Shown: one piece after another, positions 15,461-27,774 of the stretch
Layout of the letters: each line of letters begins with the position of its first letter
Numbering within the stretch: the first letter of the stretch is position 1
DNA from: an uncultured Aquiluna sp.
GTDB taxonomy: Bacteria; Actinomycetota; Actinomycetes; Actinomycetales; Microbacteriaceae
NCBI GenBank assembly: GCA_913775595.1
Contig: CAJYLB010000001.1
Coordinates: 1 to 64,000, forward strand
DNA length: 64,000 nucleotides
Reading direction: 5' to 3'
The notes under the pieces: generated by a model
What the model was told of the DNA's origin: nothing
What the model saw: the letters and a program-made list of their open reading frames with translations, nothing else
Databases searched by the model: none
Position numbers and translations under genes: made by a program

Positions 15461-18400
15461 TTGGCTGCTGCGAAAAACGCTAAATCCACCAAGTCCGCAA
15501 ACACATCTAGAACCGCTCAGAGACCTTCCTTTGCAAAGCACTCTGACCCGGTAGAGATCCCAGACCTACTCTCGCTTCAGACCGAGAGCTTTGACTGGCT
15601 AGTAGGAGCTCCTGCCTGGCGCGCAATCGCTGGCAAAGCTGCGAAGACCGGTCTCGACGAGGTCTTCGAAGAGATCAGCCCAATCGAGGACAGCAGCAAT
15701 GCTGCCCAGGACGCGAAGATGGGACTGTCCTTCTCTGACCCAGAACTATTTGACCCTCCCTACACCCCAGACGAGTGCAAGGAGAAGGGTAAGAGCTACA
15801 CTCAGCCGCTCTACATCAAGGCCGAGTTCACCAACTACCTAACCGGTGAGATCAAGAGCCAGACCGTATTCATGGGCGACTTCCCGGTCATGACCGGCAA
15901 GGGCACCTTCATCATCAACGGAACCGAGCGCGTGGTTGTCTCGCAGCTAGTGCGCTCCCCAGGTGTTTACTTCTCGGTATCCACAAACACCACTGGAAAC
16001 CTGGACGTTCGAAACAACAAGGCTCAGATCATTCCAAGCCGCGGAAGCTACCTGGAGTTTTTGACCGAGTGGGTCAAGGACGAGCGAAAGCCAGCAGCCC
16101 GCTTTGGCCAGCCAATTCTTCAGGTTCAGGTTGACCGCAAGACCAAGGTCTCGGCCACCATCTTCTTGAAGGCCCTTGGTTTCACCAAGGACGAGATTCG
16201 TGCTGAGTTCTCAGACATCAAGGCAGCTATAGAGGCAAGCCCGCTTGAGATGAAGTTCGATGAGGACATCATCGAGAGAACTTTGGAGTATGACGAGTCG
16301 AAGGTATTTGCCAACCCAATCTTGACCAAGGAAGAGGCTCTTCGCGAGGTCTACCGCAAGGTTCGCGGTGAGGCTGCAGGTAGTGAGGTAGCAGACGCAT
16401 GGCTGCGCTCCACCTACTTTGAGTCCAAGCGTTACAACCTCGCTCGCGTTGGTCGCCACAAGATCAACAGGAAGCTGCAGATCGAGGAAGACGCAAACAT
16501 TACGACCCTCACCAAGGCCGACATCGTCAGCACGCTGAAGTACCTGCTGCTTTTCGACCTCGTCCTCGCAAACAATGTGTCCTCAAGCTCGCAGAACGCC
16601 GAGTTTGCAATCAAGATGAACGGCAAGAAGGTAAACCTTGCTGTTCGCTCTGATGACATTGATGACTTCTCCAACCGCCGCATCCGCAGCGTTGGTGAGC
16701 TGATCCAGAACCAGGTTCGCATCGGCCTCAGCCGTATGGAGCGTGTGGTTCGCGAGCGTATGTCCACTCAGGACATCGAGGCGATTACCCCGCAGACCCT
16801 GATCAACCTGCGTCCAGTTGTTTCTGCACTGAAGGAGTTCTTCGGTGCCAGCCAGCTGTCACAGTTCATGGACCAGAACAACCCACTTGCCGGCCTCGCT
16901 CACAAGCGTCGTCTTTCTGCTCTGGGTCCTGGTGGTATCGCTCGTGAGCGTGCCCAGATGGAGGTTCGTGACGTTCACCCTTCCCACTACGGAAGGATGT
17001 GCCCGGTTGAGACCCCGGAAGGTCCAAACATTGGTCTGATCGGATCGCTTACCGCGTTTAGCCGCATCAACAGCTTTGGCTTCATCGAGACCCCTTACCG
17101 CGCAGTAAAGAACGGCAAGGTTTCAAAGACCGTTGAGTTCCTAGATGCCGCTGCTGAGGATGGCAAGGTAATCGCAGGTGCTGACACACCTTTGAACACC
17201 GATGGCTCGCTGAAGGGTCCAAAGGCCTTCGCTCGTTTCCGTGGCGACATCGTTGAGGTCGACGCAGCAGATGTTGACTACATCGACGTCTCCCCACGTC
17301 AGCTAGCTTCGGTCTCGACCTCGCTGATTCCATTCCTTGAGCACGATGACTCTTCACGTGCTCTGATGGGTGCGAACATGCAGCGTCAGGCTGTGCCGCT
17401 ACTGCGTGCCGACAGCCCATACGTCGGAACCGGTATGGAGCGCATTGCCGCCATTGACTCGGGTGCCGTAGTGGTTGCCGAGCAGGCCGGTGTTGTCGAG
17501 GAGATTGACGCTGACGAGATCACCGTTCACAACGACAACAAGAAGCGCTCCACCTACCCGCTGCGCAAGTTTGACCGCTCGAACCAGGGAACCGCTATCA
17601 ACCAGCGAGTAATCGTAGAGGTTGGTCAGCGCGTTGAGGCTGGCGACGTTCTTGCCGACGGTCCTTCGACCGAAAACGGTGAGCTAGCCCTTGGAAAGAA
17701 CCTGCTCGTGGCATTCATGCCTTGGGAGGGTTACAACTTCGAGGACGCGATCATCCTCAGCCAGGAGCTTGTGAAGCAAGACACCCTCTCTTCGATTCAC
17801 ATTGAGGAGTATGAGGTGGATGCTCGCGACACCAAGCTTGGTGCTGAGGAGATCACTGCCGACCTACCAAACATCTCGGTTGAGGCGCTTGCCCAGCTAG
17901 ATGAGATGGGTATCGTTCGCATCGGTGCTGAGGTTCGACCTGGAGACATCCTGGTTGGAAAGGTAACCCCTAAGGGTGAGACCGAGCTCTCGGCCGAGGA
18001 GCGACTATTGCGTGCGATCTTCAACGAGAAGAGCCGCGAGGTTCGCGACACCTCCTTGAAGGTCCCACACGGCGAGGGCGGAACCGTAATTGGCGTCAAG
18101 GTATTTGATGCTGAGGACGGCGACGAGCTCGGTGCCGGCGTGAACCGCAGGGTTGTGGTTCACATCGCCCAGAAGCGAAAGATCACCGAGGGTGACAAGC
18201 TTGCTGGCCGCCACGGCAACAAGGGTGTTATCGCCAAGATTCTCCCGGTTGAGGACATGCCGTTTATGGAGGATGGAACTCCTGTTGACATCGTGCTGAA
18301 CCCGCTGGGTATTCCAGGCCGTATGAACTTCGGTCAGGTTCTGGAGACCCACCTAGGTTGGGCATGTAAGCAGGGTTGGGACGTCAAGGGCGTTGCCAAG

Positions 18401-19084
18401 TGGGCTGATGACATGGCCAAGAGCCTGATCAAGAGCGAGCCTGGCACCAAGGTTGCAACTCCTGTGTTTGACGGTGCAACCAAGGACCAGGTAGCTGGCA
18501 TCTTGGACCACACGCTGCCAAACGACGATGGCCAGAGGCTCATCGACGGCAGCGGTAAGGCAAGGCTCTTTGATGGTCGCAGTGGCGAGCCATACCCAGA
18601 GCCAATTGCCGTTGGTGTCAAGTACATGCTCAAGCTCCACCACCTGGTCGACGACAAGATTCACGCTCGTTCGACCGGTCCTTACTCGATGATTACCCAG
18701 CAGCCACTGGGTGGTAAGGCGCAGTTTGGTGGCCAGAGGTTTGGTGAGATGGAGGTATGGGCCCTTCAGGCCTATGGCGCAGCTCACACTCTCCAGGAGC
18801 TGCTAACCATCAAGTCCGATGACATCGCAGGTCGCGTCCGTACCTACGAAGCGATCGTCAAGGGTGACAACATCCAGCCGCCAGGAATCCCCGAGTCATT
18901 CAGGGTTCTGGCAAAGGAGATGCAGTCACTGGGTCTCAACGTCGAGGTAATCGACGACGAGGGCAGGGTTGTAGTGCTGAAGGACGAGGAGTTCGAGTCC
19001 GACCGCGCAGCCGAGGAGCTCGGCATCAACCTAAGCCGCAACGAGAACCTGTCCGCCGAAACCGATTTCAACACCTACCAGTAA
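15461..19084 (+). CDS. rpoB: RNA polymerase beta subunit (divergent)
   Basis: [47 protein letters not shown]. Confidence 0.99.
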
Positions 19085-19106: not shown

Positions 19107-22100
19107 ATGTCAGTAAGAGTAGAAAACTTCAGTGCCCTTCGCGTTGGTCTTGCAACCAGCGAGGACATCCGTTCGTGGTCATCTGGTGAGGTAAAGAAGC
19201 CAGAGACCATCAACTACCGAACCCTCAAGCCGGAAAAGGACGGCCTTTTCTGCGAGAAGATCTTTGGTCCCACAAAGGACTGGGAGTGCTCGTGTGGAAA
19301 GTACAAGCGTGTCCGCTTCAAGGGCATCGTCTGTGAGCGCTGTGGTGTCGAGGTAACCAAGAGCTCGGTTCGTCGTGAGCGCATGGGCCACATCGAGCTT
19401 GCGGCTCCGGTAACCCACATCTGGTACTTCAAGGGTGTTCCATCACGCCTTGGCTACCTGTTGAACATGGCTCCAAAGGATCTCGAGAAGATCATTTACT
19501 TCGCTGCCTACCGCGTCATGGACATCGATCGCGAGCTTCGCGACAGCGAGTATGACCTGGTTCGCGAGGAGTACGTGGACCGTATTCGTGCTCTGGTTGC
19601 AGCTCGTAACGAGGAGTTCGAGGCAGCGGCCTCGGAGGAGATCGCCGAGCTTCGCGAGCTGGGACTTGAGCTTCAGGTTTCCAACAAGTTCTGGGAGCTA
19701 CCTCGCTGGATTGAGAAGCAGTTTGCCAAGAGCGTTGAGCAGCTAATCGACGCCGAGGAGAAGGACCCAGAGGGCTTCTGGTCCGCTAAGTCGCTTGCTA
19801 TCGAGACCGACGAGGAGCAGGAGGACGCAGTCGTCCGCACCTCGGATGAGACCAAGAAGATCAAGAAGCTCACGATGGACTTCAAGAAGAAGACCGACAA
19901 AATCGTGCGCGAGTACGCCCGTCTGGAGCGCCCTGCAAACCTTCACAAGGAGCAGATCGCATGGAGGATGTTCCTAACCGCTGAGGTTGGCCAGCTACTT
20001 CCAAACGACGTGATCTTCGACCACTTCGACTACTACTTCTCCGACTACATCATCACCGAGATTGGTGCCGAGGCAGTTATGCAGGTGCTGGCCGGTTTTG
20101 ACCTAGAGGGTGCTGCGGCTGAGCTTCGTGCTGAGATCGCAACCACCAAGGGCTCAAAGCAAACCCAGGCAATCAAGCGCCTGAAGGTTGTTAGCAGCTT
20201 CGAGCAGTCGGGAACCCCTCCCACCTCGATGGTGCTGTCGGTGCTACCAGTGCTGCCACCTGAGATTCGTCCAATGGTTCAGCTTGATGGTGGCCGCTTT
20301 GCCACCTCAGACCTCAACGACCTCTACCGCAGGGTTATCAACCGTAATAACCGTCTGAAGAGGTTTGTCGACCTGGGTGCTGTTCCAAAGACCATTTTGA
20401 ACAATGAGAAGCGCATGCTTCAGGAGGCTGTTGACGCTCTGTTCGACAACGGTCGCCGTGGTCGTGCTGTTACCGGTACCGGTAACCGCGCCCTGAAGTC
20501 GCTTTCTGACCTTTTGAAGGGTAAGCAGGGTCGTTTCCGCCAGAACCTACTGGGTAAGCGCGTTGACTACTCGGGCCGTTCGGTAATTGTGGTTGGTCCT
20601 CAGCTGAAGCTCCACCAGTGTGGTCTTCCAAAGCTGATGGCACTCGAGCTGTTCAAGCCGTTTGTGATGAAGCGCCTTGTTGATCTTGGTCTTGCTCAGA
20701 ACATCAAGAGCGCTAAGCGCATGGTTGAAAGAAGCCGCCCGCAGGTTTGGGGCGCCTTGGAAGAGGTAATCAAGGAAAGGCCGGTACTTCTAAACCGTGC
20801 ACCGACCCTTCACCGCCTCGGTATTCAGGCATTCGAGCCAGTACTGGTTGAGGGTAAGGCAATTCAGCTGCACCCGCTCGTCTGTGCTGCGTTCAACGCT
20901 GACTTCGATGGTGACCAGATGGCTGTTCACCTGCCGCTCTCCGTGGAGGCTCAGGCTGAGGCCAGGATCTTGATGCTCGCATCAAACAACATCCTGAAGC
21001 CATCCGATGGTCGCCCGGTTGCAACCCCAACCCAGGACATGATCATTGGCCTGTTCCACCTGACCGAAGAGGTTGAGGGTGCTAAGGGTGAGGGCCTAGC
21101 CTTCAGCTCGATGGCTGAGGCTCAGATGGCCTATGACATTCACGAGCTGGCTATCAGTGCAAAGGTTCGAATCCGCATCGATGGAGAGCTACGCGAGACC
21201 ACCTTTGGTCGCGCACTGTTCAACGAGGCGCTGCCTGAGAACTACCCGTTTGTAAACGAGCAGGTTGGCAAGAAGCAGCTCGGACAGATTGTTTCTGATC
21301 TGGTTGAGATGTATTCGAGGACCGAGGTTGCCGCTTCCCTTGACAAGCTCAAGGACGCTGGTTTCCACTGGGCTACCCGCTCGGGTGTTTCAATGGCTAT
21401 CTCGGACGCAAACTTCGACCCGAAGGGAACCTTCGACAAGAAGCGCGCCGAGATGATCACTAAGGCCGAGAAGCAGCACACCAAGATTCAGGAAGCATTC
21501 GACAACGGTCTCAAGTCAGACCTCGAGCGTCGTGATGAGCTGGGTGAGCTTTGGTCTAAGGAGACCAAGGAAATCCAGACCATGCTTCAGGAGTCCATCC
21601 CGCACGACAACGCGATCTACAAGATGGTGACCTCTGGAGCTAGGGGTAACTGGCTGCAGATCCGTTCGATCATGGGTATGCGTGGTCCGGTTGCGACCTC
21701 ATCCGGTGACTTCGCACCGATGCCTGTGAAGGGTAACTACCTGCTCGGTCTAACCGCGCACGAGTACTTCACCAACGCAACCGGTGCTCGAAAGGGTAAC
21801 GCTGACACCGCCATGAAGACTGCGGCCGCCGGTTACCTAACCCGTCGTCTGGTTGACGTGGCGCAGGACGTAATCATTCAGATTGAGGACTGTGGCACAT
21901 CGAAGGGTCTTGAGAAGGACCTGCTGGATGACGAGCAGGTCGAGCTGTCGATTGTTGGCCGCTCCAACCTTGCAGATGTAAAGGTCGGCAAGGATGTGCT
22001 GGTCAAGGCTGGCGAGAACATCGATCACGCCACCGTTCGCAGGCTCAAGGAAGCCGGAGTTGAGACCATCGTGGTCCGCTCGGTTCTTACCTGTGAGGCT

Positions 22101-23285
22101 GAGGCTGGTATTTGTGCCGCATGTTACGGAGTATCTCTTGCTACCAACCAGGAGGTGAACGTCGGTGAGGCCATCGGTATCATCGCCGCTCAGTCCATTG
22201 GTGAGCCAGGTACCCAGCTGACAATGCGTACCTTCCACACCGGAGGTGCTGCTGAGAACACCAAGAAGCAGACCATTCTGAAGTCAATTGGTGGTCAGAA
22301 GGTTCGTGTTGAGCGTCTGATCTCCTACGACATCACTCAGGGTCTAAACGGTGTTACCGACCTCCTCGAGGCTCGTGTTGGTTGGCGTCAGGCTGGCAAG
22401 GTTGCTGTTATGGCCTTCTGGGACGGAAAGGTTGACCTCGTAGAGAAGGTCTCCACAACCGGAACCAAGAGCTATGACGTCTTCGTTCGCCCACAGGGTG
22501 AGAAGGCGGAGAAGGAGGCTGAGGCGCTAGCCATGCAGTACAGCTTCTCCAGAACCGCCTCGAAGACCTTCAAGAAGCTGAGCCCATACCTGCCAATCAC
22601 CACGGTGTCATCCGCCGATGACCTACTGGTTGAGAAGGGCGAGATGGTTGAGGCCGGAGACTACCTGGTTGATGGAACCCCAATTCCACACGAGGTGCTG
22701 ATGATCAAGGGAAGCCGCGAGGCTGCCGCCGAGATCATCCGCGGTGTTCAGGCGATCTACGGCTCCCAGGGTGTGCCGCTGCACGACAAGCACCTTGAGG
22801 TGATTGTTCGTCAGATGCTCTCCAAGGTCACCGTTATTGACTCCGGAGACACCGACATGCTCCCGGGTGAGATCATCGACCGTCAGCGCTTTGCGGCCAA
22901 GAACCGCGAGGCAGTAGGTCAGGGTCTACGTCCAGCCAGCGCGCGTCAAGAGGTTATGGGTATGACCCGTGCCTCATTGGCAGCTCAGTCTTGGCTATCG
23001 GCGGCCTCCTTCCAGGAGACCACCAGGGTGCTAACCCAGGCGGCACTGGACAGGCGAGAGGACAAGCTCGTCGGTCTGAAGGAGAACGTCATCATTGGAA
23101 AGCTAATCCCAGCCGGAACTGGTATGGCTCGCTACCGCAACTTCGAGGTCGATGGCACCGAAGAGGCAAAGGCAGAGCGTTACCCGAACCGAATCTGGTC
23201 GGATGCTTCCTTTGAGGATGCAGACCTGGATTCCCAGGAGCTAAGCCTCTCGGTTGCAGACCCATTTGCAGTCGAAGAGAACTAA
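19107..23285 (+). CDS. rpoC: RNA polymerase beta' subunit (divergent, several insertions)
   Basis: NADFDGD catalytic motif, both Zn sites, [13 protein letters not shown]. Confidence 0.99.
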
Positions 23286-26583: not shown

Positions 26584-27774
26584 ATGGCTAAGGCGAAATT
26601 CGAGCGCACAAAGCCGCACGTCAACATCGGAACCATTGGTCACGTCGACCACGGTAAGACCACTCTGACTGCGGCAATTACCAAGGTGCTGCACGACAAG
26701 TTCCCAACACTTAACGACAGCTACGCATTCGATGCAATCGACAACTCCCCAGAGGAGAAGCAGCGTGGTATCACCATCAACATCTCCCACGTGGAGTACC
26801 AGACCGACAAGCGCCACTACGCACACGTAGACGCTCCAGGTCACGCTGACTACATCAAGAACATGATCACTGGTGCCGCACAGATGGACGGCGCAATCCT
26901 CGTGGTTGCTGCTACCGACGGCCCAATGCCTCAGACCAAGGAGCACGTGCTTCTTGCTCGCCAGGTTGGTGTTCCTTACATCGTTGTTGCCCTGAACAAG
27001 GCTGACATGGTCGATGACGAGGAAATCCTTGAACTGGTTGAGGTTGAGGTTCGTGACCTGCTGAACCAGTACGAGTTCCCAGGTGACGACGCTCCTGTAG
27101 TCCGCGTTTCAGGTTTGAAGGCCCTCGAGGGTGACGCAACCTGGGGCGAGGCAGTTGCCAAGCTCATGGAGGCTTGCGACGAGAACATCCCAGAGCCACA
27201 GCGCGACACCGACAAGCCATTCCTTATGCCAGTTGAGGACGTCTTCACGATCACCGGTCGTGGAACCGTTATCACTGGAAAGGTTGAGCGTGGTCAGATC
27301 AACGTAAACGACGAGGTCGAGATCGTTGGTATCCGCGACAAGCAGAAGACCACCGTTACCGGAATCGAGATGTTCCGCAAGCTGCTCGACTACGCAGAGG
27401 CCGGCGAGAACGTAGGTCTACTACTTCGTGGTACCAAGCGTGAGGACGTCGAGCGTGGTCAGGTTGTCTGCAAGCCAGGCTCAATTACCCCACACACCAA
27501 CTTTGACGCCAACGTCTACATCCTTTCCAAGGATGAGGGTGGCCGTCACAACCCGTTCTACACGAACTACCGCCCACAGTTCTATTTCCGTACCACTGAC
27601 GTAACAGGCGTTATCAGCCTGCCATCGGGTACCGAGATGGTTATGCCTGGCGACACCACCGAGATGAGCGTTGAGCTGATTCAGCCAATCGCCATGGAGG
27701 AAGGTCTACGCTTCGCGATCCGTGAGGGTGGCCGCACCGTAGGTGCCGGTACCGTCACCAAGATCAACAAGTAA
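26584..27774 (+). CDS. tuf: Elongation factor Tu
   Basis: [24 protein letters not shown]. Confidence 0.99.

Follow-up and report, generated by a model that had tools for sequence, protein, structure and literature searches.

The trigger-loop insert of RpoC and its authenticity

Is the extra segment in the trigger loop of this Aquiluna RNA polymerase real, how did it arise, and what would it do in the enzyme? The window, i.e. the whole stretch of 64,000 nt that was analyzed, contains rpoB (15461–19084), rpoC and a ribosomal-protein cluster, and belongs to a genome of 1.245 Mb in a single contig. The features of the loop were as follows.

19107–23285, + strand: rpoC, RNA polymerase beta-prime, 1392 amino acids, single copy in the genome
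22215–22247, + strand: trigger helix 1, 11 residues including the NTP-contacting residues, unchanged
22248–22262, + strand: first five linker residues, variable and equivalent to the 5-residue loop of the ancestral state; 33% nonsynonymous codon differences
22263–22328, + strand: insert of 22 residues, predicted to form a beta-hairpin of two strands around a Gly-Gly turn; in 12 genomes, all but one of its 22 positions do not vary

Translation of the rpoC frame gave RTFHTGG, a 27-residue linker (22248–22328) and then a 16-residue segment starting with DIT (22329–22376), which bore out the original prediction of 27 residues between GG and DIT. The gene looked like that of the housekeeping enzyme. 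It was the only copy, lay in the rpoBC-str cluster, had the catalytic motif and trigger helix 1 intact, and grouped with Actinomycetota.

An assembly artefact or a skipped segment was ruled out by the presence of the same linker across the genus, in sister genera, in database proteins and in independent contigs. An independent seawater DNA run yielded a contig of 740 bases that spanned 21990–22729 with eight differences and crossed the insert without a gap. Contigs from three RNA libraries covered it as well; these indicate presence, not expression level. The sole contig that joined across the insert, with 13 other letters different, was read as the short-linker rpoC of another organism.

Distribution in Microbacteriaceae and Actinomycetota

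The 27-residue linker was found in all 14 matched genomes of the genus, the source genome included (11 others, 54–92% complete, gave no match and stand outside this count), and in all eight genomes of two sister genera (5/5 and 3/3). It was also present in 119 of 120 close database proteins, a set picked by similarity; the remaining one was missed by the search pattern. All 19 genomes fetched from 14 other Microbacteriaceae genera had a 5-residue linker. Of 301 genomes of the family scanned with a normal query, 289 matched, and only the same three genera had split-type scores. In three other low-scoring genomes (G292, G060 and G255) the score came from a contig end or from a break following the linker, not from an insert; G292 was uninformative. 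The insert is fixed in three small-genome genera of Microbacteriaceae, between which RpoC identity is 79–81%. The names of the homologues (Aquiluna borgnonia, Aquiluna sp., Ca. Rhodoluna planktonica and Rhodoluna) led us to infer that this clade is the Luna-1 subcluster and that the source genome probably belongs to Aquiluna.

The linker was 4–8 residues long in all 82 scored loci from other bacteria. A genome scan with the Aquiluna loop served as a background set only, of the best 80 of 598 loci, which were generic rpoC with no Luna-1 locus among the matches listed. The phylum was scanned through 401 Actinomycetota genomes (377 matched; 16 unpublished genomes counted in this tally only). Several families scored low, and 30 genomes were fetched, of which 29 matched. 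Trigger-loop inserts of 113–134 residues were present in 11/11 genomes of family f35 and 2/2 of f43, and the other fetched genomes were of normal length. A trigger-loop insert is therefore not unique to Luna-1 within Actinomycetota. The premise that all Actinobacteria have 3–5 residues here did not hold for f35 and f43, and most sampled Actinomycetota have 4–8. Among the Actinomycetota searched, the short kind of insert was found in Luna-1 only. No intermediate between the short linker and the full set of changes described below was found; every Luna-type sequence had the whole package.

Other RpoC variants came up in these scans. All 13 long-insert genomes of f35 and f43 (L240, L241, L243–L247, L250–L254 and L256) are low in GC (32–43%) and 1.2–2.4 Mb in size; by eye their insert resembles a single SBHM, with no significant profile match. 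Families f60 and f42, which we take to be Coriobacteriia as a guess, have a 5-residue linker with a rewired bridge helix (Ser at 788) and trigger helix 2 (Thr at 1140) (L242, L249, L255, L257, L258 and L261). L263 (G562, family f77) has an RpoC frame of 2012 residues with S793A and a long repeated expansion after an altered trigger helix 2.

Constraint and predicted fold

Codon pairs were compared in 23 genomes. In the last 22 linker codons, 26.7% of the pairs had a synonymous difference and 0.4% a nonsynonymous one; trigger helix 1 gave 22.8% and 0%. The first five linker codons gave 36% and 33%. Judged from these codons, the hairpin residues are constrained as strongly as the catalytic helix. 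Equally invariant 22-residue windows made up 26% of all such windows in RpoC, so that the insert behaves like core rather than surface.

AlphaFold models of residues 717–1326 had, in both of two runs, two strands of 9–10 residues with a Gly-Gly turn and a continuous helix 2. The pLDDT of the hairpin was below 50 in both, and the models gave it no confident position; they establish neither fold nor docking. With low confidence, we interpreted the insert as a GG-turn beta-hairpin. Its net charge is +4. The description of the insert as basic was thus correct, and its beta-hairpin-like nature was recovered at the low confidence of the models. Fold searches returned RNA polymerase chains only and were uninformative on the hairpin; the Atlas returned only Rpb1 domain 5 clusters.

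Relation to SI3

Alignment to E. coli RpoC placed the insert between the loop and trigger helix 2a of beta-prime, the site of E. coli SI3 (beta-prime i6) and cyanobacterial Si3. As in those enzymes, changes in the jaw come along with it: the jaw insertions co-occur with the insert and are conserved, and the models place the hairpin without confidence. A similar role is likely. On the other hand, E. coli SI3 is 188 aa long with two SBHM domains, whereas the Luna-1 insert has 22 added residues, no Pfam match over the cut-off, a two-strand hairpin in the models and no sequence similarity to SI3. BLASTP gave no alignment between the two at E values up to 100, a comparison of little power with a 27-residue query. 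Position 1136 was Gln in 119/119 Luna-type proteins. Gly at this position correlates with the presence of SI3, and Gln is typical of enzymes that lack it (PMC4756841). Unlike SI3 enzymes, Luna-1 has also lost the hinge Pro-Arg.

On these sequence grounds, the insert is not a member of the SI3 family, and 'mini-SI3' had to be given up as a statement of membership. The independent gain on an SI3-less background that the original prediction proposed was supported.

Single substitutions in or near the loop, such as Deinococcus G1136M and E. coli A941T (a suppressor of SI3 loss), are described as retuning catalysis, cleavage or viability. Compared with these, Luna-1 has about 27 conserved positions changed in several elements, along with new insertions. 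BEAN and HABAS are likewise independent insertions in RNA polymerase subunits, but they are whole domains (PMC11515920). The same source argues that insertions ceased in later bacterial evolution. Unlike BEAN and HABAS, the Luna-1 insert arose inside one family.

The supplements of PMC11515920 and PMC11077087 contained no match to Rhodoluna, Aquiluna or Microbacteri-. No paper on the insert was found in a literature search that reached few subscription papers, in line with the earlier statement that no description was known. An earlier listing may exist in Lane and Darst (2010, J Mol Biol). The insert is apparently an undescribed variant at the SI3 site.

Changes in the catalytic module

Twelve Luna-1 sequences were compared, with residue changes given in E. 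coli numbering. The changed elements were as follows, all on the + strand.

22329–22376: trigger helix 2 and hinge 2; P1139N, R1140G, F1145L; Gln kept at 1136
22374–22421: rebuilt connector from trigger helix to jaw; 4-residue insertion, K1151G; 15/16 invariant
22536–22598: jaw; clade-specific insertion of ~20 residues; 18/21 invariant
21762–21860: bridge helix; T776A, H777T, L783N, L788M, D792A, S793A
21684–21752: F-loop; P750S, I755A, I759V, R764L and others; 7/20 family-conserved columns changed
21408–21437: start of the rim helices; six-residue insertion, P647D, K650R
22956–22994: segment 1305–1320; I1309M, K1311R, T1316A
15971–16141: rpoB beta-lobe; ~12-residue insertion, W183Y, E187L, R197Q, R202T; 52/57 invariant
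16931–16978: rpoB fork loop 2; L538I, S539A, G544Q, V545M; 16/16 invariant in the clade

RpoC has 445 columns that are conserved both within the family and across 71 other bacteria. At 19 of them all 12 Luna-1 sequences carry a different, fixed residue; these changes include L788M, S793A, P1139N, R1140G, F1145L, K1151G and K1311R. Pro1139, Arg1140 and Leu788 were invariant in all 90 comparison sequences. Around the loop, in regions picked post hoc (rim helices, F-loop, bridge helix, trigger helices, jaw and 1305–1320), 27/116 family-conserved columns were changed versus 24/546 elsewhere (Fisher p = 1.6e-9). Trigger helix 1 had none of its 14 changed. RpoB had 41/688 conserved columns changed, including W183Y, H447D, L538I, G544Q, V545M and N677S, in addition to the lobe insertion. 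Taken together, the column comparison indicates that the insert belongs to a wider remodelling of the catalytic module, shared by the whole clade. W183Y, H447D, G449S and L538I in RpoB are presumably at or near the core-recognition-element pocket. This suggested that the reading of promoter or pause sequences may differ.

Four more divergent Luna-type RpoC keep the 27-residue linker, and three of them add 200–300 residues in the jaw. Divergent proteins with this extra jaw are P0161, P0164 and P0167 (also P0123–P0125); P0161 gave weak matches to barrel-sandwich hybrids, below the cut-off. The N-terminal clamp insertion of RpoC (~19600–19950) looks longer than and different from that of the family, with 5/17 checked residues conserved.

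Short inserts in Chloroflexota

When 1.84 billion representatives were searched with the loop region, two fragments labelled Proteobacteria in NCBI, P0128 and P0131, came up as well. The same 26-residue insert was present in the full-length P0169 (85 members) and P0170 (6) and in three metagenome contigs (L230–L232). The carriers nested among Chloroflexota-named proteins, sister to a protein with a 4-residue linker. The Chloroflexota-type RpoC proteins with this insert are P0128, P0131 and P0168–P0170.

The insert is like that of Luna-1 in its site, similar length and hairpin-like pattern, and its lineage has L788M, S793A and a lost hinge proline (P1139K). It differs in having another sequence, three extra residues after DVT, R1140 kept and a canonical beta fork loop 2. 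L788M was present in 140/140 Luna-type and 4/4 Chloroflexota-insert sequences, 0/204 short-linker and 0/17 long-insert sequences, a count from which the pattern had removed six f60/f42 sequences and any sequence that lacked either region. Kin that carry L788M are not independent, so that this counts as two origins.

At 489 conserved sites the Chloroflexota lineage had 15 changes, of which five fell on the 27 Luna-derived sites (p = 7e-4). This overlap was the highest among 76 Chloroflexota-type proteins. The runner-up, P0188, changed four of the 27 sites with a 4-residue linker and no insert, which suggested that some of the sites are simply mutable. Close relatives of the insert carrier were absent among the 378 matched of 401 Chloroflexota genomes (6 unpublished ones counted in this tally only), and searching found no further fragments of it. 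A third short insert, of 28 residues, was found in Chloroflexota G970 (L271) and P0197, with L788I, A791S and a canonical Pro-Arg.

From these comparisons, a narrow, unrelated Chloroflexota lineage seems to have reached a similar design independently. In another reading, the hairpin would be what is left of a transferred SBHM insert after collapse to its stalk, or would have been exchanged with Chloroflexota. Luna and Chloroflexota inserts share the turn Gly and a Glu, and their alignments beat shuffles in 4/6 pairs (p = 0.005–0.014), p-values that are inflated because the matches were picked by similarity from 1.8 billion proteins. Against exchange, the Chloroflexota protein was 69–85% identical to its own sisters and 42–62% to Luna-1 in all five tested segments, which argues against a transferred region; the hairpin codons alone might still have been transferred. 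The insert aligned neither to E. coli SI3 nor to the f35/f43 insert, and the Gln at 1136 is typical of SI3-less enzymes (PMC4756841). We consider such an origin highly improbable. More tentatively, with odds that we put a little short of even, the 26–28-residue hairpins may form a second, SBHM-free class of trigger-loop insert with at least two origins, each accompanied by L788M, S793A and loss of the hinge proline.

Stem branches and other proteins of the clade

The Luna-1 stem, divided by the mean outgroup distance, was 1.0 for RpoC, 0.72 for RpoB, 0.91 for EF-Tu, 0.38 for S7, 0.29 for GreA and 0.11 for EF-G, in FastTree trees rooted on G056 with columns of >10% gaps removed and G232 absent from several sets. 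The long RpoB and RpoC stems call for caution in placing Luna-1 with these markers. A 2014 RpoB tree placed R. lacicola outside a nested position (PMC4156110).

Fixed changes at conserved columns numbered 0/455 in EF-G, 1/117 in S7 and 0/49 in GreA, which indicated that there was no general relaxation. This speaks against a non-adaptive ratchet, in which a deleterious insert became fixed while the population was small, neighbouring changes made up for it, and it is now indispensable without benefit. The lack of intermediates and the presence of the whole package in all Luna-type sequences are what such a ratchet would leave, and compensation between loop and bridge helix is documented (PMC5127505, PMC11077087). 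However, invariance residue by residue along the whole hairpin is more than tolerance needs, and three inserts of 26–28 residues suggest a preferred length. We regard the ratchet as very unlikely.

EF-Tu (26584–27774; eight fixed changes in 261 conserved columns) was accelerated together with the polymerase, and EF-G was not. The pressure may therefore not be specific to transcription kinetics. EF-Tu is another antibiotic target, and the module changes might represent escape from inhibitors. The streptolydigin pocket is, we assume, lined by beta 544–545 and beta-prime 788, 793, 1139 and 1140. Among the salinamide-resistance positions reported in PMC4029172, beta-prime 775 and 783 and beta 677 are changed. 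The CBR-resistance position P750 is changed too, and position 792 affects streptolydigin sensitivity (PMC3959191). On the other hand, four of the five positions of high-level salinamide resistance (R738, A779, G782 and D675) are unchanged (PMC4029172). Inhibitor pockets coincide with the moving parts, so that every model would predict such overlap. Continuing variation is the usual mark of an arms race, but the Luna-1 module froze. Escape from inhibitors is therefore an unlikely explanation.

GreA was found in 30/30 genomes and looked ordinary, with its acidic tip intact; a co-evolving Gre factor was rejected on its 0/49 changed columns. Its C-terminal domain has a 9-residue insertion in 4/4 genomes of genus g1 (G000:C1:781194, L142) and a 2-residue one in genus g53. 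CarD, two RbpA paralogues and omega were present as in relatives. The two RbpA copies, considered as a clade trait in five genomes, are the family norm (32/40). Loss of HelD was considered as well: a HelD motif was absent in G000, and two non-Luna small genomes likewise had no match above the HelR cut-off (0/5).

A proposed role in trigger-loop folding

We propose, at a probability of about one half, that the hairpin is docked on the enzyme and works as a lever that shifts the balance of trigger-loop folding. On the Luna-1 stem, the tip of the trigger loop would have been extended by this 22-residue hairpin; the position, length and conservation of the segment are observed, and the fold is predicted. 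Its docking site is probably the secondary-channel mouth, on surfaces of the jaw, rim helices and beta-lobe that arose at the same time; strong constraint on a surface insert suggests a fixed contact. Much as SI3 does in E. coli, the hairpin would then be a lever for loop folding, in minimal form, and the changed bridge-helix, F-loop and hinge-2 residues may adjust the balance between its open and folded states. Elongation rate, pausing pattern or factor access would become specific to the lineage as a result. In favor of this proposal are the clustering of fixed changes around the loop, the long RpoC and RpoB stems beside the short ones of EF-G, S7 and GreA, the constant hairpin length in the four divergent relatives, and the parallel changes in Chloroflexota.

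Several reports bear on this proposal. SI3 interacts with the jaw and inhibits folding, and hinge Gly and Pro destabilize the folded helices (PMC4227799; bioRxiv 2021.01.27.428476). Loss of SI3 is viable only with a loop suppressor, itself inviable alone (PMC11077087). Weaker contacts of the bridge helix with beta give faster catalysis and blunted pausing (PMC3959191). Against the proposal, L783A, N792A and S793A are singly silent in E. coli, while L788A lowers activity (PMC3077646). Yeast T834 corresponds to S793 (PMC5127505, PMC3077646); T834A is a loss-of-function change and a suppressor of overactive loops, and P1099 variants, too, mostly lose function (PMC5127505). The evidence on the hinge proline points both ways, and we claim no direction for the effect. 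In this comparison yeast P1099 is taken to be P1139.

The following also counts against a lever. The bridge helix and helix 2 are rewired without an insert in six f60/f42 genomes, and the 28-residue Chloroflexota insert keeps Pro-Arg and has only L788I.

Alternatively, the basic hairpin and the jaw and beta-lobe insertions might grip the downstream DNA or the non-template strand and stabilize open or elongating complexes with little effect on loop folding. The charge of +4 would suit such a grip, as would the location of changes in the beta-lobe, W183 and the jaw, whose structural role, we presume, is to line the downstream DNA channel. Cyanobacterial SI3 is also described as having a loop-independent role in initiation. 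However, the Chloroflexota insert is not basic, the shared bridge-helix changes are left unexplained, and CarD, the RbpA paralogues and omega are present as in relatives. We consider a DNA grip quite unlikely.

Implications

One review describes all known trigger-loop inserts as SBHM repeats. For the origin and role of such inserts, Luna-1 provides a minimal, recent and phylogenetically bracketed case, with the ancestral state kept in related genera of the family. The natural replacement of Pro1139, Arg1140 and Leu788 offers a ready test of the coupling between bridge helix and trigger loop. Rhodoluna lacicola, of an insert-bearing genus, and Aurantimicrobium photophilum, of the same family, are reported to be genetically editable (PMC11577799). 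The insert-bearing RNA polymerase belongs to tiny aquatic actinobacteria, Aquiluna, Rhodoluna and their kin. If the short-hairpin class holds true, the universal active site of RNA polymerase would have another way of being wired that can evolve repeatedly and that became fixed in an abundant group of small aquatic bacteria.
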